Below are positions 9,987 through 43,819 of a stretch of DNA of 64,000 nucleotides, one piece after another. Origin of the DNA: Escherichia phage Paul. The stretch is from the sequence record NC_070992.1. One strand, 5' to 3'. The notes beneath the pieces are model-generated. The model did not search any database and was not told where the DNA came from. It was given only the letters and a program-made list of their open reading frames with translations. The stretch's first letter is position 1. Every line of letters starts with the position of its first letter. The translations under genes and the position numbers were made by a program.

Positions 9987-9995
9987 TAATGTATA
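9987..9995 (+). promoter_or_regulatory. TAATGTATA motif, candidate phage-sigma promoter element
   Basis: exact 9-mer 34 nt upstream of the 10029 ATG, after a terminator; same motif recurs before other operon-initial genes. Confidence 0.45.
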
Positions 9996-10028
9996 TTCTT
10001 TGTCTACATATAACAAGGAGGACAACCT

Positions 10029-10781
10029 ATGGCAATGCCAGATGTTCAATACCCCATCAATACCTATGGGTGGCTAAAGAAGGCCGTGGCCCTCTGGGCA
10101 GATAGGGACGATGACGAATTTGTTAATCAAATTCCAAACTTTATTAACTTTGCAGAGAAAGAGATTTATCGTAACTTACGTATTCCTCCTCTGGAAAAAG
10201 AAGTCTATTTAGATATCAAAGATGGAGTGGCTTATATTCCTCCTGATTACTTAGAAGCTCAATGGATGATGAGAGCCAAAGATGGTACAATCTTCCAAGT
10301 AACCTCTCCTGAAGAGATTAGCTATCGTAGACAGCATGGAACAATTAATCCATCTCATTGGAATAATCAACCTGTTAACTTTGCTCGTTTCGGGAGTCGT
10401 TTCATTTTCTATCCTAGTATTGAAGCAGATACTCCGTACTACCCTGATGATGGAAGCCCTTTGATTCCAGCAGAAAACTCAGTGATTCTTAGCTATTATG
10501 CAGACCCACCGGAATTCCATGAAGATACAGATACTAGTGCTATTCTTACTATCGCACCAGAACTCCTTCTGTACTTCACTCTACGTCATGCTTGTTTGTT
10601 TGTTCAAGATGATAATGGTGTTCAGAAATGGTCAGCACTAGGGAAAGCTATCCTTGATGAAATGGTAGAACAGAATAAGAAACAAGAGTACTCAGGTTCA
10701 CCTATCGCAATTCCGAATAACATGACTCGACTTCAGAGCAGCTTGCCTGATATTTATGGTATTCGTACTTCTCGTGTATAA
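10029..10781 (+). CDS. virion structural protein (putative head-tail adaptor, 250 aa)
   Basis: position between capsid/Ig gene and tail fibre genes; SD AAGGAGG. Confidence 0.4.
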   Translation: MAMPDVQYPINTYGWLKKAVALWADRDDDEFVNQIPNFINFAEKEIYRNLRIPPLEKEVYLDIKDGVAYIPPDYLEAQWMMRAKDGTIFQVTSPEEISYRRQHGTINPSHWNNQPVNFARFGSRFIFYPSIEADTPYYPDDGSPLIPAENSVILSYYADPPEFHEDTDTSAILTIAPELLLYFTLRHACLFVQDDNGVQKWSALGKAILDEMVEQNKKQEYSGSPIAIPNNMTRLQSSLPDIYGIRTSRV

Positions 10782-10790
10782 GGAGATAAT

Positions 10791-13700
10791 ATGATCGTTT
10801 ATAATAACCAAGCACCTGATGCAGTGAATAACGTTGGGCAGTTTGGTGCTACAGAAGGCTCTATCGGAGCTTACAAGCAGGCAGCAGAATATGCAGCTGA
10901 TTCTAAATATTGGGCATTACTAGCTGAGTCTAAGTTTGGTACAATCGATGATCTGATCGCTGAAGTAGAACGTCTGTACCAACAGGGCGCTCTTTTGCAA
11001 CAAGACATTGAAGAGTTGAAGCAAGATTTTAAAGATCAAGATGCTCGATTAATGCAACTCATTGCTCAGACCAACGCAGCAGTAGCTGACGCTCAAAACG
11101 CTCTAGCGCTAATGGACCAGAAGCTTATTGAGGTTCAAGAACGTCTCGACATCTTGCTTGGGATGTCTGTTGATGTTACTACCCTTCCTCCGGGAAATGA
11201 GGCTTCAGGACATTTCGACCCTAATACCGGCGTGATCTCACTAGGGATTCCTCAAGGACTCCCCGGAAAAGATGGGTCTGTTAAAGATTTAGACTCAGCG
11301 CCTGTAGGAACTCCAGAGCTTGGAGATTTGGGTTTCTATGTTGATAAAGATGATAATACAGTACATAAAACATCTTTGGAAAACATTGCTAGTCTTATAC
11401 CTTCTGTTCGAGATATAAGTTTGAATGGTGGGGCACCTCAGTCTGGTAATGTTTCTTTAATCATTGATAAGAACACCGTAGGACTTCCTAACGTAGAAAA
11501 CGTTGCCTCCTACAGTAAAACTGTATCTGATAATAAATTAGGCGGGTTTGTAAAAACTTACGAGAGTAAGGCTCTAGCAGAGGCTGATATCCCAAACCGT
11601 CAAATCGGAGAAACCGTATTAGTTTGGAACAATACATCGTATGTTTTCTATGAGGTAGCCCCTGATTTATCTCTTTCTCTCAAAAAGGAAGAACCTAGGA
11701 TAGTAACCGTTAACTCTCGCATTCCGGACTCCACTGGTAATATTGACATAACAATTCCTACAGGAAACCCATCCCTCTATTTGGGTGAGATGGTCATGTT
11801 TCCTTATGACCCAAACCTTCCAGTATCCTATCCTGGTATTCTTCCTGCTGATGGTAGAGTTGTATCTAAAGCAGCAGCTGGGGATTTGGGTCCGTCTCTG
11901 ATAAGCGGACAACTTCCTGTTGTTTCTGAGAGTCAGTGGCAAAACGGGTCAAGACAATATTTCTCCTGGGGTACCTTAGAAGACGGCTCTGATGCCGACT
12001 CTACTAACTATAGAGAGATACGACTTCCGGATTGGACAGGAGGTGAGGCTATTAGATCTCCAGATGTGAGCAAAGATTCTTCTTACAGCGGAGCACCTTT
12101 ATCACAAGTTCCTTATATTGTTTCAGTGAATAACATAACTCCTGATGATTCCACTGGTAACATCTCCATCACAAGATCTTCTTTGGGTGCGGCGAAGTCT
12201 GGAGACAATTCTGACATTACGTCCTTGTCGGGACTAACAACCCCAATCTCGATTGCACAAGGTGGTCTAGGTGTTACAACTCAAGAAGAGGCGTGGAATG
12301 TTGTCCGTCCTGCTGGACCAACAACGTTATCTACCGCTGCTGTGGGTGAGATGGATGCAGTAACTAAAGGGTATGTTGATCTTATCAAGTCAGATGTAGA
12401 TTACCTGAAGTCACTACCTTCACTTATAGACATATCTAAAGTAGATGGTGTAAGGAACAGTGATATGTTGAATAGCTTTTTCTCTTCAATCAAGGGAGGT
12501 ACAGCAAAAGTCTTCTCAAGTGTTCCGTTAACCTTTACTATAGATAAAACTACAACTCTGTACGGGAATTTTGACTTAAGTAACTGCACATTCAACCTAA
12601 CTGGTGGTCGGGTTATTTATGCAGATGAACGAGACCCAGATTCTTGTTTAAAAGTAATAACTTTATCAGGGTACCCACTACAAGAGTCTAGCAAAGTGTT
12701 AACAACCAATGACTCCCTTCAAGGGTGGGATAATTCCTTAGTTAAGATAACATCTACAGAGATTGACCTATATCGTTATCTCAATGGAGTATCAACCCCT
12801 AAAACTAAAGGTGAAGTTAACTTCTTAACTAAGAATAAAGAGTTAATGTATTCTCTCAAAAATACGTACAACGATCCTGTGTCCTGCACCCTCTACAAAA
12901 TACCTTTAACTAGAAACCAGATCTCCTTACCTAAGATAGAAGGTTCGATTAATATCTTTGCTTTTGATATCAGAAGATCTTTGGTTGATGTTAATATTAT
13001 TATGGATAGCAGCATAGGGCAAACATCTGTAGATTCTACTGTGTTTGGAAGTGGTTTTACTTTCGGGGTTGTTTGGAAAGTTATTGGTTCGGGGATCACT
13101 CAAACTGACACCAACTCTAGATACTCTGTCACCACTGAATTTGCCCTTAAGCATCTATTCACATCTTCTCTTGTAGGCAAGGGATGGAGATCGGTAGATG
13201 GGAATTATAGTAGAGATATGACTTTTAGGGACAGCACTTTTGATTCAATTCAAATGCACTACGGCTGCTCTTCTATCTTAATCTCTGGATGTGAGGTTCC
13301 TTCTGTCATCTTCGGTACTGGAGCCTTTGGAGAAACCACTCAGGTGATTAATTCTGATATCAGTACGTTTGGTATTAGAACGGATTACGGAGAGCACAAG
13401 GGAGATTTTTATGTTACTGGCGGCTCTATAAGAATTCCTAGTACGTCATCTGGGATTGTTGATCTATTCGTCTGTAGAAGCGACAATATCAACTCGTCTG
13501 GTGAACCCTTACAGCCGAGACCTCTCCACCTTCCGAAAAACGTCAAAATCAGCAGTAACATCTATTGGCCTGATTCTGTAACCTTGAACCTTGTTAGTCT
13601 GAAAAACAACTTCAAAACTACAGACACCAATAAGTTTATTACTCCTAGCTTAATAGATTTTTCTGGAAGTACATTTAATGGTAAGCTAGCTAGGTTTGAG

Positions 13701-16455: not shown

Positions 16456-16458
16456 TCT

Positions 16459-26064: not shown

Positions 26065-27720
26065 ATGCAACAGACAACTTACGCTCAGGTCAGAAGTCGT
26101 GACCCGAGAAATACTTTCTATGGTGTTAATCCGGGAGCGGCTTCGGCCTCTCCTTATATGGCTAGACCTACTCAGACAGCAGATGTTTCTATGTACCAGC
26201 GTCCTGCTGTACCTTCATCTCTCGCAGGTCTTGTCTCTCAAGCAGAAGAAGATCAGAATGCTATGGTGAATCCGGGATTTCAGCAACGTCTTATGGAACA
26301 ACAGAATCAAGGAACCCCAACAAGTCTTCAGGGTATTGATATTGGAGAACCAGCCACTGTAGCAGCTAATCCTAATTTATCCACTGATCAAGGTTTACAA
26401 GATGCGGGACTTATGCCTAGTGATCCTCTTCCGGTAACACCCCCTACTAAACCACTAGAAGCTGGTCCTATGGAGTTTACTCCTTCTCAAGTAGAACAAG
26501 CACAAGGTGTTGTTAACACTCTTGCTCAAGGTCAGGACACTGGTGATGGTATGGCTGCTGCTACTCGTGCTAAAGATCAGGAACGTGTTAACAACGATAT
26601 CTTGCAAGTTGCGAAAGCTAAAGACCCTTCAGAAGCTTGGAACAAACTACAGAAAGAACCATTCTATCAGAACTCTAGTTTCTATACAGGTTTGATGGGT
26701 GTAGGTCTTTCCATTATGTCAGGTAAGTCTCCTATTGAAGCTTTCCAGATTGGTCAGGGAATGGCTAACCAAGATGAGACTAAGAAGCAACTAGAAGCTA
26801 ATCGTGATGCCCTGATTGAACAAGGTTTCTCTCAAGACTCAATTGCAGCTGCTATTGCTAACGGAGACCCATCTCTACTGAAGATGAGAGCTGTAGACCC
26901 TGCTCAGAAAGAAGCGTTGTATGCTGCTCGTGAAGAACGACAAAATGCTGAATGGGATAGACGTCAACAGATTCAAGAGCAAACTATGCGTGAGCGTGCT
27001 GATGAAACTCGTCGTGCCGCTGAAGAAAGGGCTAACATGAACTTCGAACGTCAGAAAGAGTTGATTGGCTATCGTGATAAAGTTAAGGCTGAACGTGCTG
27101 AACAAGCTGCTCAGAGTTTTAACTTTAATCCGAAAGAAGTTCGTCTTGCTCAGAACACAGCTGAAGGTACGGTTGCTAAGCAGTGGGCAGAGAAAGGTGG
27201 TCTGTTTAACCAGTCTAACAAAGACTTGGATTTGGCTGATAAGGCTGTTAAGGATAAAGATTATCAGACAGCTCGTTCTGCTTACATGCAGGCTATTATG
27301 AACTCCGCAAGGGCTGAAATCGGTGCTACTCGTTCTCTTACCGAAGAAGACTTGGGGCACTTTGCAGAAGACCCGTCAATCTTCGTTCGTGTTGGCAACA
27401 AGTTTGCACTGAAATCTGGATGGCGTCCTACTGATTCTGCTCTTGCTTATGCTCGTAAGCAGGCTAACGTTGGTCACACCTCTGCAATGAAAGGTGTTGC
27501 TGATGCTAAGAGAGCTACGATTGAAGCTTATATTGGTTCTGGTATGGATAAGAAGAGGGCTACTGCATTGGTCAACCGTGCAATCCCTTCTGGCGGTTTC
27601 TATGACCCTCTAGGTGTTTTCTCTGAACAAGCGGAAGAAGCAGTTGGTGGTGCAGCAACCAATCCTAAGCTTAATGGTGCTTTATCAGCTGTCGAAGACA
27701 CTAGCTGGTTCACTCAATAA
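26065..27720 (+). CDS. internal virion / ejection protein (551 aa)
   Basis: SD TAGGAG; position among internal proteins; helical charged C-terminal half. Confidence 0.45.
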   Translation: MQQTTYAQVRSRDPRNTFYGVNPGAASASPYMARPTQTADVSMYQRPAVPSSLAGLVSQAEEDQNAMVNPGFQQRLMEQQNQGTPTSLQGIDIGEPATVAANPNLSTDQGLQDAGLMPSDPLPVTPPTKPLEAGPMEFTPSQVEQAQGVVNTLAQGQDTGDGMAAATRAKDQERVNNDILQVAKAKDPSEAWNKLQKEPFYQNSSFYTGLMGVGLSIMSGKSPIEAFQIGQGMANQDETKKQLEANRDALIEQGFSQDSIAAAIANGDPSLLKMRAVDPAQKEALYAAREERQNAEWDRRQQIQEQTMRERADETRRAAEERANMNFERQKELIGYRDKVKAERAEQAAQSFNFNPKEVRLAQNTAEGTVAKQWAEKGGLFNQSNKDLDLADKAVKDKDYQTARSAYMQAIMNSARAEIGATRSLTEEDLGHFAEDPSIFVRVGNKFALKSGWRPTDSALAYARKQANVGHTSAMKGVADAKRATIEAYIGSGMDKKRATALVNRAIPSGGFYDPLGVFSEQAEEAVGGAATNPKLNGALSAVEDTSWFTQ

Positions 27721-27740
27721 GACCTAAGTCCTGCCTTCTA

Positions 27741-27749
27741 TAATGTATA
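27741..27749 (+). promoter_or_regulatory. TAATGTATA motif, candidate phage-sigma promoter element
   Basis: exact 9-mer 38 nt upstream of the ATG at 27788. Confidence 0.45.
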
Positions 27750-27787
27750 TAGGGGGTAGGACATTTTTATTTATAAAAGGAGACGTT

Positions 27788-30700
27788 ATGGCTAACATTA
27801 AACCGTGGGAAGAAGCTTCCAAAGCTCCTGCGTATCTGAATGCCTCTCCGGAGCAACAAGCTCAAATGAGAGAACAATATAAGGCAGCAGGTGGCTCTAT
27901 TCCTGAGGAACAACCAGTAGCACAACCACAACAAGAAGAACGTGGTGCTATAGGTGAGTTTGCTCAAGGTGTGTCAAATGCTCTTCAATCCGGTGGTGCA
28001 AATATTGCAGCTAGTGCTGCTAAAGGTATTGGTGGTTTAGTTGAGATTGGTGAGAATCTAGCTGGAGCACAAACTAGTTACGGTAAGCGTATCCAAGAAA
28101 ACTCTCAGAACCTTCTGAAAGAACGTATGGATAAGATTGAGGATGGGATTGGTAAAACTGTTGGTCAGTATGCTGGTGTTGCTGGTGATATTGGTATGAC
28201 TGTTGCTAACCCATTAGCTGCTGCTGCTATCATCGCAGGTCGTGAGACAGGTCGTGCATATGCAGACCAAACCCCTGAAGAGGGAGAAGATAAGTCTATT
28301 CTAGATGCAGCCTTAGTTGGTGGTGCTAACTATGCGGCTCAGAGAATCCTTCCGGGTGCTGTTGGTACAGCTGAGTCCACACTTGGACGTATCGGTCAGA
28401 ACGTTGCTAGTAACGCAGTGGCTGGTGCTAAAGGCGGTGCTCTTGTAGGTGCTGCTGAAGCTCAGAACAAGCATGGAGATGATACAACCTTTGCTAATGT
28501 ATTAGAGGGTGCTATCGAAGAAGGTGCTATGGGTGCTGCATTCGGTGGTGCAGTTGGTGGGGTTCACGGTTTGATTAGCCGTCCGGATTCTGCTGTCTTC
28601 AAGAATACTCCAGAGTATGCGAAGACTGATATTGCTGCTGATGACGAACTGATTCGTAGTGCTAAGAATGTTGATGAATTGAAAGAGGCTTACTCTAAAG
28701 CTGAAACTGCTAACGCTGCTTCTGCTCTGAACCTTCTCGATGAGAATGGATTCCGTATTACAGATGCTGTTGCTGTAGATTCTCCTCCTGCTCAGCGTAT
28801 TCTTAATACTGACCAAGCTCGTGCTGAGAAAGCTGCTTCCGTTCAGAAAGAGCATTCCAACATTCCGGGCCTTAATCCTTTAGCTTCTCCTGCTAAGACT
28901 CGTGGTAAAGCTTTCGCTGATAATGAGCACAACCAGAAGCAGGCTGTTGCTATGAAGGATGCAATGGCTGATTACACCAAAGACAACACGAAAGCTCTTA
29001 CAGATGTTCTAGATAACCTAGATCGTGAATTAACATCCCTACGAGCTTCTGGTAATTTTACTGGTAGTCCGATTGATATTAAGAATCGTACACAAGCTGA
29101 CCGTGACTTCATTGATGCTTACAAGACTTTCTACAATGAAGCAAATCGATTCAAAGCTCGTGAAGGTGAAGACTTTAATAACTTTGTAGAGAAAGCTGCT
29201 GAACTACAAAAGATGGCTGATAATGTTTCTCCAGAGATGAAGAAAGCTATCGGTGGGTTGAAGAAACTGAAAGGTATGCCTGAAGGTTTTAATCCTATCC
29301 AAGATGCTTACACTCTGAACAATACAGCTAAGTTCATGAGCAATCAAGATCGTGGTTGGACTTCCCTGACTGATGATGGCTTCCGTGAGGCTTCTTCACC
29401 TAGTCTGGTAATGAACACTCTCGGTGCTGCTAAGTATGCTCTGAATCGCTTCTCTTCTCAGCGTGCTCGCTCTCAACGTGTTAAGCAACAAGAATCTAAC
29501 AGTGAAGCTATCCGCTCTCTTGCTCGTGGTGATTTGGAAGTTGCTCGTGCTAAATCTACTGCTGATGAAGCTCGTGCTAAGATGGAAGAAGAACCAGTTG
29601 TTGATGACATTAAATTTAAGACGCAAAATGACGTGGAAACCGAACCGGTTCGGGAGCCTTCTTCTAGTACTGTGACGGAAGAAAATCTTCCTTCTTCTGC
29701 TCCTCAAGAAACCCCTCTTACAGCTCGTGATTTAGTTGCGCAAAGACGTGCTATCCGTCAGGCTGAACAGCGTCGCGCTGAAGAAGAGGCATTGGCTGCT
29801 CAAGAAGCTCCGGTCGAACAAGCTCCACAGGCTGAACCTCTCCCTGCTCGTAATCCTTTAGAGGAGCGTCGTGCAATGGAACAGCAACGTGCTCAAGAAG
29901 AGGCCGCACAGGCTCCAGAACCCACTGTAGAGGAACCAACAGTTAAAGCTGAGCCATTACCTGCCCGTGCTCCTAAAGCTCCTAAGGAAGCTGTACAGGA
30001 CGTTAAACCGGCAAGTGGTGTAGAACGTTTAGCTGCTATGTCTAGTGCTGCTCGTCAGGCTACCAAAGATCGTGCAGAACGCTTTGCTCGTTCTCTGTAC
30101 TCTAAGGCTGCTAAAGCTAAAGCTACTGCTGAAAACTTCTTGGCTTATAAAGGTGATCCTAAGGAATTGATGCGTCGTATTCGTCAGGAAGATAATGCTA
30201 TCAACACTGAACGTCATGAAGAAATGGCTCGTAACCAGCTGGCTTCTCAGCAAGGTATTGCTACTGCTAAGAACAACACTGTACGAACTAATTTTGCTGA
30301 ATGGGTTAAGGAACGTGGTCTGCCAGAAGACATTGCTACTAAGGCATTACGTGCTGAAGAGAAAGGTTTAGGTGGGAACGTTACTAACTTGGATAGTCTG
30401 AAACGTCGTGCTGAAAGGTTGTATCAGAAGCAGCGTGAGGATGAATTTGATAGATTGTATCAACAAGCTCTAGAAGAGAACAAAGCTTTCGATAAGAAAG
30501 ATGCTCCTAAACTGGTTGACCAGAAGAAAGAGCTTCAGTCTGAGATTGATACTTTGATTGATTCTGAACCTTTACGTCCTGCTCAGAAAGATGCTATGCG
30601 TAAGCTGATGAATGACTTTGTAGATGGGAAGTTTAAATCTTCAGAGAAGGCTGGTAGGGAAGAGGCTTTGGAAGTTGGTCAGATGAAGGATATTTGGGAT

Positions 30701-32209
30701 GGGTTTATTAACACCTATAACAGAGAAGTGAATGCCTTCAACAAAGCTAACAAGAACTCTCAGTATGAAGCTGCTGCTAAGCATTTACAGGCTCGTGAAG
30801 AACGTCTTGCTACTCTGAGAAACAAAGCTCAGGCTCGTTCAGATGCTAAGGCTGCTGTTGAGAACGAACGTAAAACTTTAGAGGCTATTGCAGCTCAGAA
30901 GAGTGAGATTGAGAAGATGATGGAAGGTTTACCTAAACCTGTTCGTGAGGCTCAGGAATCTCGTACATTGAAACAGTTGGCTGCTCACCACGATAAGAAC
31001 TCTCCAGTTCCTCCAGAGAAGTTCCGTAGTTACATTGAACGTATCCATAACGCCGAGTCAGACTACCTTGATCGTCAGCGTCGTTTAACTGATGCAGAGG
31101 AAGATGCTCGTCAGGCCAAGTGGAACAAGATGTATGAGCAAGCGGAAGAAATGAACCGTAAGTTTGATGTGGACAAGAGAGTTAAGCGCAGTGAAGAGCT
31201 TAAAGCGGCCCAAGAGCGTGAGAATGACCTTATGGCAGTACAACGTCAACGTGATGACATTCATCGCCGCCTGATGCGTACTATGGAAGATAAGGGCATA
31301 TCTAGAGAGGATGCTGAAGCATTTGCTGGTTCCTATATGGATAACCGTTATGCACTTCTTGAGAAGCCTATGACTCCTACTGAACATCAGAATGCTCGTT
31401 CTCGTATCGAAGCTGATGTTGAGAAGTTTGCTAAGAAGTACGAATCAATGACTCCTATCGAGAAAGAGATTGTTAAGGTTACTGGAGATACTGAAGGTAA
31501 GCTTGATAACTTGGATGCGGATACTAGGAAGGCTATTGAGGAGGCTCAGAAGGTTGACTCTGATATTAAGAAACTGCAAGAGGAAGAGTTGGAGATGGAG
31601 AAGATTCGTTCTGCTCTGCCTGATGATGAAAGATCTCAAGCAAATTCTGATATCTTGGAAAGCATTAAACAACAGGAAGAGGTCTTTGCTGATAAAGTAG
31701 AGAAAGCTTTCTTGAGTGGGAAGAGCTTGGATGAGTTGGCTAGTGTGGCTGAAGTTTTAGACAGGGTTCATGGTGCAGATAAGGCTGGTAACAACCGTCG
31801 CTTTGTACGTGCATTGCAGACTGCTGCTGAAAACAAGAAGAAGTATGGTGATAATCCAGTAGCTTGGTTTAGTGCTGATGATTATTCTGCTATTGCTAAA
31901 CTTGGTGCTTCTTCCGCAGGTGGTAACAAATCTAGAGCACTGGAGAAGATCTTTGGTTCTACAGCTGAACAGGCTAAGAGTAAGTTGCTTGGCAGGGATG
32001 ATGTAGCGAAGATGAGACGTGTGATTGAAGAGAACCCTGATGTTAAGATTCCTTCTTACAAGACAACGAATCGTACTGAGTACTTGCAGTTCTTGGAGAA
32101 GTTTAATGACGAAGGGAAGCCGAAGATTAAACGTGGCTCATTGTCAGAGAAGCTTGAACGCAGTAAGCGTCAATCGAGACTCCGTGTAAGAGTTCGACCT
32201 AAGGAGTGA
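27788..32209 (+). CDS. large internal virion / ejection protein (about 1473 aa)
   Basis: start set at ATG 27788 with SD AAGGAG (track start 27743 lacks SD); Ala-rich helical coiled-coil composition. Confidence 0.5.
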   Translation: MANIKPWEEASKAPAYLNASPEQQAQMREQYKAAGGSIPEEQPVAQPQQEERGAIGEFAQGVSNALQSGGANIAASAAKGIGGLVEIGENLAGAQTSYGKRIQENSQNLLKERMDKIEDGIGKTVGQYAGVAGDIGMTVANPLAAAAIIAGRETGRAYADQTPEEGEDKSILDAALVGGANYAAQRILPGAVGTAESTLGRIGQNVASNAVAGAKGGALVGAAEAQNKHGDDTTFANVLEGAIEEGAMGAAFGGAVGGVHGLISRPDSAVFKNTPEYAKTDIAADDELIRSAKNVDELKEAYSKAETANAASALNLLDENGFRITDAVAVDSPPAQRILNTDQARAEKAASVQKEHSNIPGLNPLASPAKTRGKAFADNEHNQKQAVAMKDAMADYTKDNTKALTDVLDNLDRELTSLRASGNFTGSPIDIKNRTQADRDFIDAYKTFYNEANRFKAREGEDFNNFVEKAAELQKMADNVSPEMKKAIGGLKKLKGMPEGFNPIQDAYTLNNTAKFMSNQDRGWTSLTDDGFREASSPSLVMNTLGAAKYALNRFSSQRARSQRVKQQESNSEAIRSLARGDLEVARAKSTADEARAKMEEEPVVDDIKFKTQNDVETEPVREPSSSTVTEENLPSSAPQETPLTARDLVAQRRAIRQAEQRRAEEEALAAQEAPVEQAPQAEPLPARNPLEERRAMEQQRAQEEAAQAPEPTVEEPTVKAEPLPARAPKAPKEAVQDVKPASGVERLAAMSSAARQATKDRAERFARSLYSKAAKAKATAENFLAYKGDPKELMRRIRQEDNAINTERHEEMARNQLASQQGIATAKNNTVRTNFAEWVKERGLPEDIATKALRAEEKGLGGNVTNLDSLKRRAERLYQKQREDEFDRLYQQALEENKAFDKKDAPKLVDQKKELQSEIDTLIDSEPLRPAQKDAMRKLMNDFVDGKFKSSEKAGREEALEVGQMKDIWDGFINTYNREVNAFNKANKNSQYEAAAKHLQAREERLATLRNKAQARSDAKAAVENERKTLEAIAAQKSEIEKMMEGLPKPVREAQESRTLKQLAAHHDKNSPVPPEKFRSYIERIHNAESDYLDRQRRLTDAEEDARQAKWNKMYEQAEEMNRKFDVDKRVKRSEELKAAQERENDLMAVQRQRDDIHRRLMRTMEDKGISREDAEAFAGSYMDNRYALLEKPMTPTEHQNARSRIEADVEKFAKKYESMTPIEKEIVKVTGDTEGKLDNLDADTRKAIEEAQKVDSDIKKLQEEELEMEKIRSALPDDERSQANSDILESIKQQEEVFADKVEKAFLSGKSLDELASVAEVLDRVHGADKAGNNRRFVRALQTAAENKKKYGDNPVAWFSADDYSAIAKLGASSAGGNKSRALEKIFGSTAEQAKSKLLGRDDVAKMRRVIEENPDVKIPSYKTTNRTEYLQFLEKFNDEGKPKIKRGSLSEKLERSKRQSRLRVRVRPKE

Positions 32210-32830: not shown

Positions 32831-33194
32831 TCTCTTCTTTTGTTTTAATCTTATGACAAGGGTCTTTACACAGAACCTGAAAACCTTCTTTCTCACACAG
32901 AGCACGAGAGATGATCTCATCCCAAGTTGCTTCGTGGTCAAGAGGAACTATAGGTTCTATGTGGTCAATAGCCATATCCTTTACAGGGTGGTCAGAACCA
33001 CACATGGCACACTTAAAGTGCATTGCCAGTCTACCTGTCTTTGGATTAATCTTCTGCTCTGTCTTGGCGTCTGCTAGTGCATCGAACATGGGCTTCCACT
33101 TTCTAGTCAGAGAACGAATCCCTGACTTGATGAAAGAGTTGTAACGAGCTTCAGTCCACATTCCACTACAGCGAGTCTTCTCAGACTTCGCCAT
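32793..33194 (-). CDS. HNH endonuclease
   Basis: CAMCGSDHPVKDMAIDHIEPI ... LCKDPCH: Cys pairs plus His-Asn-His core. Confidence 0.7.
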   Translation of the reverse strand: MAKSEKTRCSGMWTEARYNSFIKSGIRSLTRKWKPMFDALADAKTEQKINPKTGRLAMHFKCAMCGSDHPVKDMAIDHIEPIVPLDHEATWDEIISRALCEKEGFQVLCKDPCHKIKTKEENDARKQFKKGNE

Positions 33195-33373
33195 AATCAG
33201 CTTCTTCCCAAACTCGTTTGTTTACACGATGACTCACCTTACCCTCACGAGGAATACGACCAGTTCTCTGATCAAACAGTTGATGTTTAATCTTTTGGTC
33301 TTTACGAGATTCACGGTTGGAGGAGTTTTCATCATATGAACGATAATCAAATTTACCCATTATAATATCCTTA

Positions 33374-34192
33374 TTACCAAGATTTATCTAACCATGTCCA
33401 GTCGAACAGGTCTTCCGGAGTCTGACCAACAAAGAGAAGCCGAGCATTCTCGAGCATCTTCTCTTCATCTTCAGTATCGAACTTCTTATAATATTCCATT
33501 CGTACTATATGATACATGGTCCACTTATCTGTAACACCAGCCAACAGACTAGCTGCTGCTTTCTTCCCGACACCTTGACGTCGTAGCTGGAGCTTACCGC
33601 CCCACATAACTTCTTTACGTTCACCACATCCGGGAATGTTATCTGTCCCATCCCCAATCAACATTTGATAGAAGAAATTTTGCCATGATACCAAGTCAGA
33701 TACATAATGAGGAGGTACTTCTCTTTGTTTCTCTCCACAGGCCCAACGATAGTGCCATCCGGGAGTTATTAATAAATCTTTGTCTCTGGTACAGATGATA
33801 GTGTTCTTATCTCTACGCTGCCTCTCAGCTAGAGCATCATCGGCCTCTCTTCCAAATACATCAATATATTCGTACTTGCCTTTAATGTAATCACCAACGT
33901 TTTGCCAGTGAAAAGGTCTTTCTCCTGGAGGTCTGTTTGCTTTGTAACCTTGTTGCTTGGCAACATCGAAACGGAAGTTACCGCCTTCGCTGAAGTAGAA
34001 TACAACCTTATTACAACCTGAGCGATCAATGATAGTATCTATCTTATACTGAAGTCGTTCAATCATGAAATTGTAATCAACTGGAACACGTCCTGTGTCA
34101 AGAAAGGGATGCTCCTGAGTAAGAGCACCCACTTCATACCGAAGAACGTCAGCGTCCACTATAGCAACTTCAGGGAGCTTAACGTCTTCCAT
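33374..34192 (-). CDS. 5'-3' exonuclease / flap endonuclease
   Basis: GREADDALA and TRDKDLL motifs typical of the PolI/T5-type 5' nuclease family. Confidence 0.75.
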   Translation of the reverse strand: MEDVKLPEVAIVDADVLRYEVGALTQEHPFLDTGRVPVDYNFMIERLQYKIDTIIDRSGCNKVVFYFSEGGNFRFDVAKQQGYKANRPPGERPFHWQNVGDYIKGKYEYIDVFGREADDALAERQRRDKNTIICTRDKDLLITPGWHYRWACGEKQREVPPHYVSDLVSWQNFFYQMLIGDGTDNIPGCGERKEVMWGGKLQLRRQGVGKKAAASLLAGVTDKWTMYHIVRMEYYKKFDTEDEEKMLENARLLFVGQTPEDLFDWTWLDKSW

Positions 34193-34193
34193 A

Positions 34194-34717
34194 TTATTCT
34201 CCTAACAGCTTACGAATTTCACTACGGAAGTTATCATACTCTTCAGGATATTCAAACCCACACTCAAGAAGGGCATAATGAACAACCTTCAGCAAATCCT
34301 GAACCTTATTCTTATCTCTGTGTCGATAAGCGTATTTGATCATATTGGTTTGTTGGAAGTTCAACTGAGGGTTTGCATGGTAAAACTCAATAGGTTGAAT
34401 CATTTTATTATTGGGGTTATAATGGGAACCTCCCACCATAGATGCTAATGCTGGATTACCTTGAGATGCCATTTCTAATTGCTCCGTGTGGTCGTGTGTG
34501 TAATCTACTAAAGAAGCCTTGTTACCAGTCACTTTAGGTAAAATTGCGCTAGCTGTTTCTGTGTACTTACCGCCATCAACATTAATTTGAAACTCCACAA
34601 GTTCATCCTGTAGTTCATACCCTGATAAGCTTGATAGCTCCTCTAGCTCATCTCTGAGGAAGTTTGTGTGCTTTCTTTGGGTTGCAAGTGCTTTCTTTAA
34701 AAGAACTATTTCTTCAC

Positions 34718-34727
<10 letters not shown>
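34194..34727 (-). CDS. hypothetical protein (177 aa), DUF3310-like by recollection
   Basis: conserved-looking KYAYRHR and HYALLE segments; no function assignable. Confidence 0.35.
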
Positions 34728-36213
<1,486 letters not shown>

Positions 36214-36214
<1 letters not shown>

Positions 36215-36474
36215 TATTCTATTCCACGCTCTTTCAGAGCTTCTAACAATCCATTGTGATTAGCAGCACATTCTGTGTACTGGTCCTGATACCACTCCAA
36301 CGTAGTGGCTAGTGCTTTTCCTTGAGCACTTTCTAAAAGAGGTAGGTCAACCCTACATTCAGCTTTTAGGTTTGTTGGTAAGGGCATTGATTGCCTGCTG
36401 TTGTCGCTCGTTGAACAAGCTGACATACTCATCACTAGCGCAGACATTATAAAAAACTGGTTTAGTTTTCTCAT
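36214..36474 (-). CDS. candidate o-spanin (outer-membrane lipoprotein)
   Basis: signal peptide MRKLNQFFIMSALVMSMSAC with lipobox-like Cys, Pro-rich mature part with two further Cys; overlaps i-spanin 3' end in another frame. Confidence 0.4.
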
Positions 36475-36709
36475 AATGCATCTCTTTATAAACGGTTTCC
36501 GTGTTCTTCTTCCAGTTAGATAAACCGGTAAGAACTCTCTGAGCAACTTCATCAGCTGCTCTACTTCTTTCAATCTCTAACTCTTGTTGATGTTTCTCTT
36601 TATCCAGATTGCTACTGTCTGTTTGGTACTCGTTAAACTTCATACCACCAAAGAATACAAGAGCTGAGAAAACGATAAACCCTAAGTTATCACTTAATGT
36701 GTTTTGCAT
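36359..36709 (-). CDS. candidate i-spanin (N-terminal TM plus periplasmic coiled coil)
   Basis: TM segment LGFIVFSALVFFGGM, then helical charged domain with one Cys; SD GGAG 5 nt upstream of ATG 36709. Confidence 0.4.
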   Translation of the reverse strand: MQNTLSDNLGFIVFSALVFFGGMKFNEYQTDSSNLDKEKHQQELEIERSRAADEVAQRVLTGLSNWKKNTETVYKEMHYEKTKPVFYNVCASDEYVSLFNERQQQAINALTNKPKS

Positions 36710-36726
36710 GTTATCTCCAACGAAAA

Positions 36727-36748
36727 AAGCCACCCGGAGGTGGCTAAG
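36727..36748 (-). terminator. intrinsic terminator after SSB gene
   Basis: minus-strand AGCCACC-TCCG-GGTGGCT hairpin followed by TTTTTTCG. Confidence 0.55.
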
Positions 36749-36766
36749 CTATAACAAGGAGAGTTA

Positions 36767-37513
36767 TTAGAATGGGCTATCGTTGTCGTCTTCATAAGTA
36801 GAAGCAGGCTCTTTATCAATCGTAGGGATTGAAGGAGTAGCTTCTTTCTGTTCTGTTTCAGAAGCACGAGTAATTTCACGACCAGCCAGAGGCATGTTCT
36901 TAGCGTCATTAGCTTGAGTAAGCAGGTTGCGCTGGAACGGGAACATTAGTTGATAGGATGCTACGTTCTCATCAGTTTCAGCATACGGTTCGAAGAATAC
37001 CAGAGGACTACGAGCTTCACCAACTGCTGCACGATATTTGGTTGGGATTGGAGAAATGGTTTTGATGGAGTTTTTAACTTCACCAGCTTTGTTAGTGTAA
37101 GAGTTAACCAGAATGTTAACAGGCTGGCCTAACAGAACATCCTTGAACCAAGACAGATCACCTTTCAGTGCTTGAATGCTTGGGTCAATCATCTTGCAAA
37201 GATCAAGAATACCAGAGTTCTTAGCTCGTGGGTTTACATCATAGCTCTTGAACTGGCAAGCCGGACGTGGTTCTAATGCCTTACCATCGGAATCTTTACC
37301 AGTAGCATCAACACCAATCAGCTCGAAAGCCAAATCCATACGGAAAGCCGGATTCTTAGGAGTTACTGCTTTGGTCTTCGGGTCAATCCAAGGGTCACGA
37401 TTGTGAACACCCAAACCTACTACACGAACGATACGTGCTTCGTATTCACCATCAGGGATTACATCGTAGTTGGATTTACGGGAAGCAGTTGCGATAGTTG
37501 GAATCATAGACAT
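36767..37513 (-). CDS. putative ssDNA-binding protein (T7 gp2.5-like)
   Basis: acidic C-terminal tail ending YEDDNDSPF; strong SD AAGGAAA; biased codon usage; own promoter and terminator. Confidence 0.5.
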   Translation of the reverse strand: MSMIPTIATASRKSNYDVIPDGEYEARIVRVVGLGVHNRDPWIDPKTKAVTPKNPAFRMDLAFELIGVDATGKDSDGKALEPRPACQFKSYDVNPRAKNSGILDLCKMIDPSIQALKGDLSWFKDVLLGQPVNILVNSYTNKAGEVKNSIKTISPIPTKYRAAVGEARSPLVFFEPYAETDENVASYQLMFPFQRNLLTQANDAKNMPLAGREITRASETEQKEATPSIPTIDKEPASTYEDDNDSPF

Positions 37514-37572
37514 ATTGTAATTTCCTTATTTAATTTGAAAGATTGTTGCTCTCTTTGAGCGGTTATGTATAG

Positions 37573-37581
37573 TATACATTA
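37573..37581 (-). promoter_or_regulatory. TAATGTATA motif, candidate phage-sigma promoter element
   Basis: exact 9-mer on minus strand 60 nt upstream of the SSB ATG; part of the 15-bp palindrome ATGTATAGTATACAT. Confidence 0.45.
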
Positions 37582-37847
37582 CGCTTATACCGATAAGAGT
37601 ACTATATAATATAAGTATCTTTGGTAGTAGATATAACACACCAGTAATGTATATATTGTATAGCTGATAAAGTTATTGCAGGCTTGTATATTGGGCAATT
37701 CACAGAACCCCTTGCAAGTACCGAAGGGCAGGAGCCACCTGCGAGATAAAAATAGAGAATTAAGGAATCCTTGATTTAGGTTGAGGACTCCTAGGACTTT
37801 GATTCTCTATTAAAATCAAAAGAAAACTTAACTTAAAACAATAACTT

Positions 37848-38486
37848 CTACCATTCTAAAAGACCTTTAAAACTAGTTTGTTCTACTGTTCTCTGAAAAG
37901 GTAAGTTAGTTCTAGCTTGAGATTCTAATTGAATCTTCTTTCGGATTTCCTCCAATTGCTCTCTACTTTTATCCCCCACTGGAAACAATATAGTTTCTAA
38001 TACGCTTTTTCTCTCAGCGAACTCCTTACGAATTTCTTGCAGAGACACAGCTTTGTAATCAATTTGTTCCATTGAAGTACAAAAGTATCTCCAATCTTTT
38101 ATAGTAGAATTATGAGTATGAGCATAGATATTATACCTTCCTCTCATTTCATCAGAGTGAATAGGAATATGAGTTACCCAAAATTCTTTGTACTTATAAT
38201 CACCACTGATGTGTCTAAAGACTTTCATCATATCAGGGAGAAGTTCTAATCTGTCATGGTTTCCTAAGACAAGATGTTTCTCTCCTTTTACTTCAGCGAT
38301 GATATCAAGAGCATACTTTTCAAACACCCAATCACCGGTAAAGAAGATTTTATCACGCTTAGTTACATGATCAAATGCAGCTAGGATTGCTTTGTCGTGT
38401 TCTTCGATGGTTTTAAATTGCTTACGAAAACTACAGATGTTGCGATGACCTAAGTGACCATCTCCTGCAAAATAAACTTCAGCCAT
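37848..38486 (-). CDS. calcineurin-like metallophosphoesterase
   Basis: GDGHLGH, GDWV, GNHD and HTH metallophosphatase motifs in order. Confidence 0.7.
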   Translation of the reverse strand: MAEVYFAGDGHLGHRNICSFRKQFKTIEEHDKAILAAFDHVTKRDKIFFTGDWVFEKYALDIIAEVKGEKHLVLGNHDRLELLPDMMKVFRHISGDYKYKEFWVTHIPIHSDEMRGRYNIYAHTHNSTIKDWRYFCTSMEQIDYKAVSLQEIRKEFAERKSVLETILFPVGDKSREQLEEIRKKIQLESQARTNLPFQRTVEQTSFKGLLEW

Positions 38487-38495
38487 AAAGACCTC

Positions 38496-38711
38496 TTAGA
38501 TAGTGCACCCGTCGCAAGTTAAATCGCCTAGAAGGGATAGAGAAAGTAATCTGGATTGCTCATCACTGTATAGTTGATCAATCTCTTCTTTAAGTTTTGC
38601 CAACTCTATGAAATTGATAAGTTGTCCATGTTCAAGACAGTCTGTTTTTAGTATAAATAAAACTTCAGCGTCTGTTGAATCTTCACTTGAATATTTATCA
38701 ATGTATTCCAT
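38496..38711 (-). CDS. hypothetical protein (71 aa)
   Basis: ORF only. Confidence 0.3.
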   Translation of the reverse strand: MEYIDKYSSEDSTDAEVLFILKTDCLEHGQLINFIELAKLKEEIDQLYSDEQSRLLSLSLLGDLTCDGCTI

Positions 38712-38867
38712 TTTTTACTCCTATTAACTATGACCAAGATTTAGCTTTTACTTCGACGTATGTTTTAACTTCACCTTTCAAGACTTCCTGAGAAGCAATT
38801 GCACTTTCCTCAGAGTGATGTACAACGGTGATCTCTTTCTTTCCAATTCTATAAGTGTGAATCCAAA

Positions 38868-39086
38868 TCATGATACTTCCTTAATATCAATTAGTTCATA
38901 GCTGCATCCTGCATCTTTGCAAGATTGCTCCAATTTCTGTGTTGCCTCTATTGGGTTTTCGCCATCAACTACCTCTTTTTTACAAGAGGCTACTACGTTA
39001 TAGGCATCAGTCCAAAATCTACTTTTATACTCAATTAAATAATATTTCATCGAGATGTTGTCCTCCCCCAATCTTTTACGTAGCAT
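38868..39086 (-). CDS. hypothetical protein (72 aa, start uncertain)
   Basis: ORF only; an unlisted 58-aa signal-peptide ORF (about 39050-39226) may overlap its 5' end. Confidence 0.3.
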   Translation of the reverse strand: MLRKRLGEDNISMKYYLIEYKSRFWTDAYNVVASCKKEVVDGENPIEATQKLEQSCKDAGCSYELIDIKEVS

Positions 39087-39222
39087 CGACCGTTAACCCA
39101 CTTTGTCTCTGATTTAAACTCTTGAGACAACCTCACTTCACAGTCTTCTTTACTAGCATCCCCTCCGATATCAATCAGATATAAGAATAGAGCTATACCT
39201 AAAGTCCAAAGGATTATTCTCT

Positions 39223-39633
39223 TCATCGAATCACCAAAGGCTCTTCAGAGTACACAGGAGCGGCTATTTCTACAGGAGGTGCTGCCCTAAGGTCATTAAG
39301 CCTTACACCCTTCAGCATGCCATCTAGGTGGTCCTTCTTAGGGATTCCAACAGGGAAGTCGTCAATCCAAATATCTACAAAGAAACCTAGCTGACGACAT
39401 ACATCATCCTTCTGAACGCCATTGCAAAAGATGATAGGAATCTGCAAACACTCTGCATCAATCTTAATGTCGTGGTTATCGTACCCATTAGGCTCTGCAA
39501 AGCGATAAGTTACAAAACGTACATCATAACCCTTTGCTTGCATTAATGTCACCACAGAGCGCCACAGCTCTTTATCTGAGGTGTAAGTATCATCGTAATC
39601 TAAACCAATATTCATGTCGAATCCTTTAGACAA
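39223..39633 (-). CDS. small HAD-family phosphatase / nucleotidase-like protein
   Basis: N-terminal DxDxT motif (GLDYDDT) and downstream DIWIDD. Confidence 0.45.
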   Translation of the reverse strand: MSKGFDMNIGLDYDDTYTSDKELWRSVVTLMQAKGYDVRFVTYRFAEPNGYDNHDIKIDAECLQIPIIFCNGVQKDDVCRQLGFFVDIWIDDFPVGIPKKDHLDGMLKGVRLNDLRAAPPVEIAAPVYSEEPLVIR

Positions 39634-39852
39634 GAAAAGCCGCCCTAAGGCAGCTTCTTATTTAACTATTCACTTTAGCTTCAAGTGTTTCATTTTCAAT
39701 ACTCAAGTCAATCACTACGCCAGTAAGCTCAACGACTGCTTGGCGAAGGGCATCTTTACCCATAGAATGTACTTGAGATAAGAAGAAAGCTTTACCTTCT
39801 TCCGTGGATAGAGTTTCTTTTAATTCAGAAGCAGTCATTGATATTCCTTATT

Positions 39853-40044
39853 TTACATTGTATAAATTCGCATGATTGTACCACCATCAGCTTCGATAGC
39901 AGCAACAACTTCATCTCGTTCTTCATCCGTGTACACTAGTACGCTTTTAAACGAACCAGTAATGTCTGTGTACAAAATGTTGTACTTGGGAGGTGGCTTA
40001 CGGTAAATACCTTCCATCACTCTTTCTCCTCTCGTTCTTTCCAC
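39853..40044 (-). CDS. hypothetical protein (63 aa)
   Basis: ORF only. Confidence 0.3.
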   Translation of the reverse strand: MERTRGERVMEGIYRKPPPKYNILYTDITGSFKSVLVYTDEERDEVVAAIEADGGTIMRIYTM

Positions 40045-40200
40045 AGTTCGGCTAGCTCTAGGTAGAACTCAGCCTCATCAGGACGTCCTTGTTCATTACA
40101 GATGGCGCTCTGACGATAACACCAATCCGATGGCATCTCTTCCACTTTAATCTCCTTGTTACGAACCAATCAATAAGAATAGTTCATTCGTCTTATTTAT

Positions 40201-40392: not shown

Positions 40393-40400
40393 AACTTACC

Positions 40401-42245
40401 TTAATGTGTGTGCATCCAGTTAAGCCCAATCTGACAATCAGATGCCAGAGGACATTCCATGTTCAAGTACTCACCAGCCTTCTTAACACAAAGCTCGGTG
40501 TGCTCTTTAAGTTTCTGTACATCATTACGGTTCACTGAGAATTGACCTTCATCATGCATATCAATTACCTTAGCACAACGAACCCCATCCTTCTCAATCC
40601 ACTTGTTAAGGAACATCATAGCATATTTCATAACAACAGCACCGGCACATTGCAGGAGTGTGTTAAGGGCTTTATGAACCATAACTTTACCAGTGGCATC
40701 TCGTCTCATTGTAATCTTACGACCATCAACGCCAATCAAGTATCCCTGAGCAGCCTTTTCTGTCATACGATCAATGAGGATTGCAATACATGGGTTCTCT
40801 GCTAAGAAACGTGCTCGCATCACTGAACCTTCGTCAGCCCCACCACCTACAATTGAACCAAGCTTAGCATCACCAGCACCATAGTTGAATGCATAGATAA
40901 ACGTTTTAGCGTTGTCACGAGTAGGAAGACCAGCAAGTTTCTGGTTGTGAGAGTGAATATCACCTTCAAGGAGGATATCACGATACATAATAGCAGAAGC
41001 TAAACCACGTTCTGCCAGAGCTTTCTTAGCTGGATTATTCTCTTCTATTGCTTCAGCAAGCATGTCCCTACACTCTTTAATGAGGTAGTGTGCAAGCATA
41101 CGCAATTCTAATCCAGAACCATCATACCCCAAGAATACCTCTTTACCAGCGGGTATGTAATATTTGTAAGCACCTACAGGCTTGTCTTTCTTCCCCGGCT
41201 TACCTTTCTCATAAATTACGTTAGTACCTTTTCGTATATAACAACCATCAGGAACAACGTTAGTAATAATGAAAGGACGAGAGTGATCATCATCTGAGTT
41301 ATAGTCAGACTCAAACAGACCGCGACACTCATGACCAAACAAACCACGGGAGGGAATATTAACCACGATACGATGTTTGAATCGAAAAGTCGGCGTAGCG
41401 CAGCTGTTAGCTTCTGCCGAAAGTTTACCATCTTCGCGCTCCTTTGCTATAAGTCCACTAATAAGACCTAGCCTGTGAGCCGCTACAACGCGTCTCTTAA
41501 GCAAACTTCCGACACTCCCTAGCTCACCCCCTAACCCTTCTTCAAGAGTCTCCTCGAGGTTTGTAGGAGCTGTAGGCCACTTGTTTGAGGTAGCTAGTGC
41601 TATCTTAATCTCATCAAAAGTGATAGGTCTACGTCGGTTAGGATTTAAACCTAAACCAAATACATAAGCCTTCATGTAGTTCTTAGTTTTAAACCGAAAA
41701 TGCTTCTCTAAGAACTTTCTAATATCAGCGTCAACCATCTCGGCTGTCTGCTTCTGTTTAGCATTACCTCGCATCCAAGCTGAATACCATGCTTGGTATG
41801 TTCCATACTTCCGCATATCTTTCTTGATTTCAAAAGTATTCCAAGGTTTCTTTGATACGTTAAACTCTGGAGGAAGAAAACCCTCATCCATAAGGGCTTC
41901 TTTAACTCGGGCATCTTTCGATGGGTCAAAGTCTACGTACTCAACACAGGTGAATGCTCCACCAATGTCTTCTCTCTTAAGTCCAACTCTATCACAATAG
42001 GCTTGAGGCCATTTCTGTAAAGCTCCAGACTTCTTAAACGGCTTCATGTAAGTAGAGCCATCTAGTCTCATCTTAGGTAAGAGAGGAATTAATTCTTTGT
42101 CAATATTAACAATAATCTCTTTAAGGAGGTGAACATACCACCGAGCATTTCTTCGGTTGAAACTCACTCCGTGCTTTGCTTGCTTAGAGATTATATCAGC
42201 GACAGTCATCTCTGTCAAAAATGGAAGAGCGTCCGGGTTGCTCAC
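40401..42245 (-). CDS. DNA polymerase, family A polymerase domain only
   Basis: motif A GYDGSGLELR, motif B RDNAKTFIYAFNYGAG, motif C IDMHDE; no 3'-5' exonuclease domain in this ORF. Confidence 0.85.
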   Translation of the reverse strand: MSNPDALPFLTEMTVADIISKQAKHGVSFNRRNARWYVHLLKEIIVNIDKELIPLLPKMRLDGSTYMKPFKKSGALQKWPQAYCDRVGLKREDIGGAFTCVEYVDFDPSKDARVKEALMDEGFLPPEFNVSKKPWNTFEIKKDMRKYGTYQAWYSAWMRGNAKQKQTAEMVDADIRKFLEKHFRFKTKNYMKAYVFGLGLNPNRRRPITFDEIKIALATSNKWPTAPTNLEETLEEGLGGELGSVGSLLKRRVVAAHRLGLISGLIAKEREDGKLSAEANSCATPTFRFKHRIVVNIPSRGLFGHECRGLFESDYNSDDDHSRPFIITNVVPDGCYIRKGTNVIYEKGKPGKKDKPVGAYKYYIPAGKEVFLGYDGSGLELRMLAHYLIKECRDMLAEAIEENNPAKKALAERGLASAIMYRDILLEGDIHSHNQKLAGLPTRDNAKTFIYAFNYGAGDAKLGSIVGGGADEGSVMRARFLAENPCIAILIDRMTEKAAQGYLIGVDGRKITMRRDATGKVMVHKALNTLLQCAGAVVMKYAMMFLNKWIEKDGVRCAKVIDMHDEGQFSVNRNDVQKLKEHTELCVKKAGEYLNMECPLASDCQIGLNWMHTH

Positions 42246-42261
42246 TTTATACTCCTTTAAA

Positions 42262-42684: not shown

Positions 42685-42847
42685 CCTACTCCACCTCTAC
42701 TTCAATGTAAGTTCTCTCGCCAACATCGTCTTTTAAGACCCATGACTTGGCATCTTCTTCCGACTTAAAAGCTTTCACAACGCTGTATCCACCTTCCCAT
42801 TCATCACCGAACCAGCGCTGTCCTACGTAAATGTATTCTTTCATCAC

Positions 42848-43132: not shown

Positions 43133-43133
43133 A

Positions 43134-43388
43134 TTAAACTCCTTTAGGGAATGGGATGAGATTTTCTACTGCAACACGAAAAGATTTTTCTACGTTCTTA
43201 TTCTTATAAGAAATGAATTTACCATCAGCACCACGAAGGATTACATTAGTGCGAGCTGTTTTAGGGTTAATCTCAATCATCCGTTCGATGACCTTGTTTG
43301 ATTTGTTGTGGTGGTTAGTGAAAGTCCACTTAACAATCTTGCCATCTCTGGTTACATCAAAAATATTTACGATTTTTACAATAGACAT
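43134..43388 (-). CDS. hypothetical protein, paralog family B (84 aa)
   Basis: tandem paralog of 42848-43132. Confidence 0.4.
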   Translation of the reverse strand: MSIVKIVNIFDVTRDGKIVKWTFTNHHNKSNKVIERMIEINPKTARTNVILRGADGKFISYKNKNVEKSFRVAVENLIPFPKGV

Positions 43389-43412
43389 ATTTATTACCTA
43401 GGAAATTTAATT

Positions 43413-43440
43413 TGGTTTATATAAAAGAAAAGGCCACCCA
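43413..43440 (-). terminator. intrinsic terminator-like hairpin
   Basis: minus-strand GGCTACCC-AAAT-GGGTGGCC followed by TTTTCTTTT. Confidence 0.45.
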
Positions 43441-43456
43441 TTTGGGTAGCCTCATA

Positions 43457-43774
43457 TTACGATGAGCTTAAAGCTCCTTTGCGTGCTCCAGCTGCTTTTC
43501 CAGCTCGATCACCACTTTTGCCGCCGTTTGAACGGTTTGAGCTGACTGATTCAACACGTAAGTTGCTTGACGCATTAGAACCTCCAGACTTGACAGCTCG
43601 TTTGTGTCCAACGTCTTTACCTCTGACAGCAGCTTTTCCATCGCGCTTTTCAACGATGCGACGTGCACGGTGGCGCTGAGCATCTCCGCTCTTGCTCCCA
43701 ATTCCCGTTTCACCGCGCTTGATCGCAGTTCTTCTTTCTTGTGCATAATCTCTCTTTCCTACATGGTCTGCCAT
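43457..43774 (-). CDS. basic low-complexity protein (105 aa), possible nucleic-acid-binding
   Basis: SD AAGGAG 6 nt upstream of ATG; K/R/G/S-rich; third-position usage matches the genome; flanked by TAATGTATA motif and terminator. Confidence 0.45.
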   Translation of the reverse strand: MADHVGKRDYAQERRTAIKRGETGIGSKSGDAQRHRARRIVEKRDGKAAVRGKDVGHKRAVKSGGSNASSNLRVESVSSNRSNGGKSGDRAGKAAGARKGALSSS

Positions 43775-43810
43775 TTAGAACTCCTTAATATATCAGTGTA
43801 CACTAAGGAG

Positions 43811-43819
43811 TATACATTA
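43811..43819 (-). promoter_or_regulatory. TAATGTATA motif, candidate phage-sigma promoter element
   Basis: exact 9-mer on minus strand 37 nt upstream of the ATG at 43774. Confidence 0.45.

Follow-up and report, generated by a model that had tools for sequence, protein, structure and literature searches.

Homologues of the six gp36-dependent promoters of phiEco32, and a candidate seventh, in Escherichia phage Paul

The 9-mer TAATGTATA recurs ahead of genes in Escherichia phage Paul (NC_070992.1), and we examined it across a window of 64,000 nucleotides (nt) of this record, which by sequence comparison is the left part of the genome of a phiEco32-like coliphage (Kuravirus). Six sites that carry the 9-mer, exactly or with one mismatch, are on sequence grounds homologues of the mapped phiEco32 promoters P6, P13, P26, P40, P58 and P68, which depend on the phage-encoded sigma factor gp36. 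The 9-mer is very probably the -10-like element of middle and late promoters read by gp36, and we extend this assignment by inference from the six known promoters to one further copy, designated Px. There is about an even chance that Px is a genuine, undescribed seventh gp36 promoter that drives a structured non-coding antisense RNA of at least ~150 nt. The initial annotation of this DNA had proposed the 9-mer as a promoter element that serves the phage sigma factor encoded at 35107-35754; that finding is correct and it is not new, the promoter class being already described and now structurally explained.

Pavlova 2012 (J Mol Biol 416:389), as relayed by papers citing it, reported six middle and late promoters that depend on gp36, with the consensus tAATGTAtA, located ahead of genes 6, 13 and 26 (late) and 40, 58 and 68 (middle), with transcription starting 6-8 nt downstream of the 9-mer (PMC8948821, PMC4331800, PMC4281155). 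Table S3 of PMC8948821, which covers phiEco32, NJ01, ECBP2, KBNP1711, SU10 and 172-1, lists TAATGTAgA for P6, TAATGTATA for P13, P26, P40 and P58, and aAATGTATA for P68. The six sites in the window agree with these sequences base for base, four as exact copies and two with one mismatch, and both mismatches (P6 and P68) fall at lower-case positions of the consensus. The initial annotation had mentioned a very similar consensus for a group of coliphages with their own sigma factor, in agreement with this published one. The genes behind the six sites are homologues of phi32_6, 13, 26, 40, 58 and 68 and map one to one by position onto the phiEco32 reference (NC_010324), in which we found five exact and two near copies at positions homologous to those of the window and no exact copy in the early region. 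The six promoters and the genes behind them are as follows.

1417-1425, plus strand: P6, late, TAATGTAGA; phiEco32 1677(-1685); -35-like TGGGA at 1394-1398; predicted +1 at ~1432
1437-1910, plus strand: gene 6 homologue behind P6 (matches phi32_6)
9987-9995, plus strand: P13, late, TAATGTATA; phiEco32 9101; -35-like TAAGA at 9964-9968; predicted +1 at ~10002
10029-10781, plus strand: adaptor/virion protein gene behind P13 (Pfam SU10_adaptor, phi32_13)
27741-27749, plus strand: P26, late, TAATGTATA; phiEco32 26014; -35-like TAAGA at 27718-27722; predicted +1 at ~27756
27788-32209, plus strand: gene 26 homologue behind P26, 1473 amino acids (phi32_26)
37573-37581, minus strand: P40, middle, TAATGTATA; phiEco32 36632; -35-like TAGTA at 37604-37600; predicted +1 at ~37566
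36767-37513, minus strand: gene 40 homologue behind P40 (phi32_40)
43811-43819, minus strand: P58, middle, TAATGTATA; phiEco32 42937; -35-like TAGCA at 43842-43838; predicted +1 at ~43804
43457-43774, minus strand: gene 58 homologue behind P58 (phi32_58)
48846-48838, minus strand: P68, middle, AAATGTATA, with the -35 element TTGGTAGTAGATAT at 48870-48857; phiEco32 46862; predicted +1 at ~48831
48469-48798, minus strand: gene 68 homologue behind P68 (phi32_68)

Exact copies of TAATGTATA number five in the window, on the plus strand at 9987-9995, 27741-27749 and 37645-37653 and on the minus strand at 37573-37581 and 43811-43819, in agreement with the coordinates and strands first recorded for them; the near-matches reported at 46, 1417 and 48838 are likewise present in the sequence. 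The initial annotation had proposed a motif count against expectation as a check, and dinucleotide-preserving shuffles of the window (n=100) gave an expected 0.74 copies, with five or more reached in none of the 100. All five copies fall in non-coding DNA, which on a crude gene map amounts to ~6% of the window, and the probability of this by chance is about 1e-6; the copy at 27741 is counted as non-coding because the start codon of the gene behind it is set at 27788 by homology to phi32_26. Mere chance recurrence of an AT-rich 9-mer without function would be in keeping with the behaviour of looser forms of the motif, as copies with one mismatch show no overall enrichment (23 observed, 18.4 expected) and lie mostly within coding sequence, and the hexamer AATGTA occurs 48 times against 43.9 expected. 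The enrichment signal, however, belongs to the full 9-mer, the sites persist, amid diverging flanks, in phiEco32 and in relatives whose sigma factors are only ~80% identical, and published experiments back them. Chance is refuted by the 9-mer statistics together with this conservation, and the probability that we still assign to it is negligible.

Both the cognate sigma factor gp36 and the activator gp79 are encoded in this genome, at the following positions.

35107-35754, minus strand: phage sigma gene (gp36 homologue), 99.5% identity to phiEco32 gp36
55009-55257, minus strand: gp79 homologue gene, same position as phi32_79

The open reading frame (ORF) at 35107-35754 matches chain F of PDB entry 9m7y ('RNA polymerase ECF sigma factor') with E=2.6e-145, and together with the mapping of the sites onto the six phiEco32 promoters this upholds the proposed link between the 9-mer and the phage sigma factor. 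The description of that factor as ECF-like holds only as an annotation label, since a Pfam scan of the ORF returned Sigma70_r2 below threshold (E=0.0012, 19.1 bits, under the 24-bit cut-off) and no match to region 4; the recognisable regions 2 and 4 that mark canonical ECF (group IV) factors are not found. Canonical ECF promoters are bipartite and of the GGAAC-N16/17-CGT type, a pattern that is not seen at the present sites, which show tRRnA at -38 to -34 and tAATGTAtA at -15 to -7. In the literature gp36 is described as a distant sigma homologue whose C-terminal domain is like sigma region 4 in fold only, and we regard it as a distant member of the sigma-70 family. The ORF at 55009-55257 matches gp79 in 9m7y (chain G) and 9m7z over all 82 residues (E=1.1e-51). 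Weak whole-sequence matches of the gp79 homologue to TAL-effector repeat proteins were also observed (E=1.4e-8 to 3ugm_A), in which no single stretch passes alone.

The gp36 holoenzyme transcribes P26 and P68 in vitro, with 4-fold and 3-fold stimulation by gp79, respectively, and an open complex on P68 has been solved by cryo-electron microscopy (PMC12276001, PDB 9m7y). According to this work the N-terminal domain of gp36 recognises -14A, -13A and -12T in the duplex and -11G, the first base to be unwound; the C-terminal domain contacts -37G and -34A of P68, where mutations abolish transcription; and gp79 is an inhibitor of the sigma-70 holoenzyme and an activator of the one formed with gp36 (PMC12276001). 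In phage Paul the host Escherichia coli RNA polymerase core would thus be expected to bind gp36, whose N-terminal domain would read A-14, A-13, T-12 and G-11 and whose C-terminal domain would contact the tRRnA -35 element, with transcription predicted to start ~7 nt after the 9-mer. Displacement of sigma-70 region 4 and stabilisation of gp36 by gp79 would then switch the cell from early transcription, which uses sigma-70, to the middle and late classes.

When the sites are numbered as in the open-complex structure, with the 9-mer at -15 to -7, all seven in the window (the six and Px) read T-R-R-N-A at -38 to -34. Among 42 non-identical promoter sequences, drawn from the window and from relatives and including variants of P40 and P58 with unrelated upstream DNA, position -34 is A in 42/42, positions -37 and -36 are purines in 42/42 and position -38 is T in 37/42. 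The six sites all carry the purine at -37 and the A at -34 that correspond to the gp36 contacts, and P13 and P26 have TAAGACCTA in common at the -35 position. A weak -35 element, tRRnA at -38 to -34, is therefore conserved; this agrees with the contacts seen in the structure and makes the earlier 'single-element' description less strict. The pattern TRRNA-N19-AATGTA matches nine times in the window against 1.03 expected, an excess that is partly circular because seven of the nine matches are the sites from which the pattern came; the two extra matches, at 24732 (plus) and 39854 (minus), are at chance level and were rejected.

These invariant bases also bear on whether the sites are, or double as, sigma-70 promoters that the host holoenzyme reads through a TATAAT-like -10 element overlapping the 9-mer. 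Weak 9/12 matches to such promoters do overlap P6 (1393-1420), Px (37628-37657) and P58 (43843-43816), but sigma-70-like matches are no commoner than in shuffles, and the bases that stay invariant (AATGTA and the A at -34) are those contacted by gp36. Moreover, transcription of these promoters is reported to depend on gp36, and the sigma-70 holoenzyme is silenced by gp79 during the period in which these genes are expressed. We therefore consider a sigma-70 identity of the sites very improbable and retain their assignment to gp36.

The fifth exact copy of the 9-mer forms part of the candidate seventh promoter.

37621-37653, plus strand: Px, candidate gp36 promoter, with TTGGTAGTAGATAT at 37621-37634, a 10-nt gap and TAATGTATA at 37645-37653

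Px lies in a 334-bp intergenic stretch flanked by the gene 40 homologue and a phosphoesterase gene, back to back with P40, and is directed rightward, antisense to the minus-strand middle genes. The initial annotation had this copy pointing toward the minus-strand genes; it does face them, but as a plus-strand element with head-on, rightward transcription it does not drive them. The 14-mer TTGGTAGTAGATAT has two copies in the window and two in phiEco32, in each case 10 nt upstream of the 9-mer at P68 and at Px, and includes the -37G and -34A that are contacted in the P68 structure. Px thus combines an exact TAATGTATA with a -35 14-mer identical to that of P68 at the same spacing. All 16 relatives compared, which include Suseptimavirus phages (~80% sigma identity) and metagenome contigs, keep the exact 9-mer together with a GGTAGTA-type -35 element at Px (with substitutions in its 3' half in two sequences), and the spacer varies freely. 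The tandem TATTGTATA after Px and the TTATGTATA opposite P40 were also considered and set aside as motifs that are not conserved in relatives. On these sequence features it is plausible that Px likewise works as a P68-type promoter for gp36 and would make a structured non-coding plus-strand RNA from ~37660. The predicted parts of this transcript are as follows.

37660-37812, plus strand: structured 5' part of the predicted Px transcript (fold prediction and conservation)
37660-37676, plus strand: 5'-terminal hairpin, which begins exactly at the predicted +1
middle module, plus strand: two alternative versions among relatives, GGCTTGTATATTGGG... or CGGGACTGACGAC... (alignment)
37751-37812, plus strand: long composite hairpin, preceded by a GCAGG/CCUGC hairpin (predicted fold)

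The block at 37677-37812 (~135 nt) has 96-99% identity between Kuravirus and Suseptimavirus, where the comparison genes (flanking genes, sigma and DNA polymerase) have 79-88% identity between the same genera. Across 13 distinct sequences all cells (100%) of the 5' hairpin are paired, against 20-58% in slid controls, with two compensatory pairs (U-A to G-C, and C-G to U-A or A-U) and one pair that alternates between G-C and G-U and would be an A-C mismatch on the minus strand. Folding energies relative to shuffles give z = -3.3 for the plus strand and z = -1.9 for the minus strand, and the variant with the other middle module (variant B) has the same outer hairpins with z = -3.0. The block occurs only in this phage family; no similarity was found in E. 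coli or in bacterial and archaeal genomes, Rfam covariance models gave a best E=1.4, far under the gathering score, and no tRNA or tmRNA was found in the Px region. There is no conserved ORF in the block; the only candidate, 32 amino acids long and starting with TTG, loses its frame in SU7-type sequences through a 1-nt indel. On the plus strand no canonical terminator was found near the Px RNA and no terminator-like site onward to 40000.

The same observations bear on the choice between a working promoter and an arrangement in which Px does not function as one. The 9-mer with GGTAGTAGATA (37621-37653) could instead be an upstream or decoy site that modulates P40, and the block could be a minus-strand terminator or 3' end of the upstream middle operon. 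Consistent with this, P40 and Px stand back to back and usually 71-72 bp apart, the minus strand forms a hairpin at 37812-37751 followed by UUUUU, and Px is missing from the published phiEco32 promoter lists, of which the Pavlova 2012 set is represented here by citing papers. However, Px is also kept where P40 is 61 bp or 190-192 bp away with unrelated DNA between them, which at 190-192 bp includes an inserted small gene, and all gp36-contacted bases of P68 are identical in Px with the same spacing. Similarly, the hairpin located at the exact predicted +1 covaries, its G-U pairs being A-C mismatches on the minus strand, and it is the plus strand that folds better. We thus judge a non-promoter role of Px unlikely and favour its function as a gp36 promoter, with several points in the balance against the overall picture. 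The promoter status of Px is deduced from its sequence, and Px may already have been assayed and found inactive; the assignment of the six promoters in this phage draws on near-identity to phiEco32. Covariation supports the 5' hairpin only, because most of the other predicted helices never vary, and the minus-strand hairpin with its UUUUU is terminator-like for the upstream operon, so that the block may serve both strands.

If it is made, the Px RNA might exert antisense control over, or insulate against, read-through into the operon that holds the sigma gene; it might also be a trans-acting RNA or a primer for an origin. A search for trans targets returned a 14-nt complementarity to the Px 5' hairpin at 12656-12669 on the plus strand, within the tail-fibre gene (0.07 expected), which we treat as chance because the matching hairpin varies among relatives. 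A literature search combining phiEco32 with 'antisense' returned nothing relevant.

The surroundings of the six promoters differ in some respects from their first description. The distance from the 9-mer to the start codon had been given as 34-60 nt and was measured as 33, 38, 59 and 36 nt for P13, P26, P40 and P58, close to that range but with a slightly lower minimum. A position mostly just after a terminator is borne out for P6, P13 and P68, which are preceded by terminator-like hairpins at 1386-1401, 9934-9955 and 48915-48900 (minus), respectively, but not for P40 or P58, for which a scan around the sites detected no preceding terminator-like hairpin. At P26 the 9-mer is itself enclosed, lying within a 15-pair terminator-like hairpin at 27728-27762 on the plus strand (GTCCTGCC...GGTAGGAC, then ATTTTTATTT); read-through from gene 25 could terminate there, and transcripts started at P26 would carry only the 3' arm. 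The predicted +1 of P6 (~1432) is located only ~5 nt before the annotated ATG at 1437 and downstream of the AGGAG Shine-Dalgarno sequence at 1426-1430, so that either P6 transcripts would carry almost no leader ahead of gene 6 or translation really begins at a codon further downstream. At P40 the 9-mer makes up one half of a nearly perfect palindrome, TAATGTATA-C-TATACATAA, at 37563-37581, which extends from -15 to ~+4 and in relatives keeps the TGTATA/TATACA arms around a variable centre; this palindrome may be an operator and is outside the predicted Px RNA.

The near-matches that had been listed as further promoter elements have separate outcomes, with 1417 and 48838 corresponding to P6 and P68. 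The near-match at 46-54 is probably no promoter because it is a terminal-repeat site with no A at -34 and its core is broken in phiEco32, which has TAATGAATA. Upstream of the sigma gene, TAATGTTTA at 35818 was rejected as a gp36 promoter because its core is broken; on the minus strand at 35818-35835, TAAGACCTA directly abuts this one-mismatch TAATGTTTA inside the end of gene 37. Within gene 37 a sigma-70 promoter that would serve the sigma gene has been predicted in the literature. A perfect sigma-70 promoter sequence was observed elsewhere, on the minus strand at 42218-42190 (TTGACA, 17 nt, TATAAT and a TG extension; 12/12), located within the DNA polymerase ORF (40401-42245, minus), ~27 nt from its 5' end.

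Comparison of the 33000-40000 region with phage records returned 97 matches, all of them phiEco32/SU10-like coliphages of the subfamily Gordonclarkvirinae with 80-95% identity. DNA identity to the closest records is ~92-94% in the compared region, and the isolate is distinct from phiEco32. In the 97 related GenBank records the six promoters are mostly unannotated, and the sigma gene is called 'hypothetical' in several. The window begins at the left end of the genome, as its position 46 lines up with position 46 of phiEco32 within the terminal repeat. In this terminal-repeat region, at 40-110, the sequence ACGGGGA(A/G) recurs several times (cacggggaaag, aacggggagt, cacggggaaag), as it does in phiEco32, and may have a part in packaging or end recognition.

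The value of the six promoters is for annotation only, and the residual novelty is in Px and the conserved RNA, for which the prospects of being both real and unreported are evenly balanced. If true, Px would add a non-coding antisense transcription unit to a transcription programme that is considered resolved for this phage, and the associated block, which of the non-coding stretches examined in these therapy-relevant coliphages is the most conserved, would be a candidate regulatory RNA or origin element.

Relative to phiEco32, the two phages have the same promoter 9-mers at homologous positions and genes, the same sigma factor and gp79 co-factor, and the same layout, with late genes directed rightward and the middle and early ones leftward. 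The six promoters show no substantive difference between the two phages, and Px comes on top of the published set. Salmonella phage 7-11 is similar in that its own sigma factor (gp47) redirects host core RNA polymerase to promoters at similar genome positions (PMC8948821). It differs in having a clearly bipartite late consensus (GTAAtg-N16-aCTA), a gp47 that is only ~15% identical to gp36, no homologue of gp79 and no middle class (PMC8948821). The sigma appropriation by AsiA and MotA of phage T4 is alike to the extent that a small phage protein remodels the region-4/flap contact and thereby directs RNA polymerase to other promoters (comparison in PMC12276001). The host sigma-70 is retained in T4, whereas phiEco32-like phages replace it with gp36. 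At the T4 origins ori(uvsY) and ori(34), a middle promoter makes the replication primer RNA. Px can be likened to these origins as a middle-type promoter without a gene behind it, and by this analogy a link between Px and replication may be considered.

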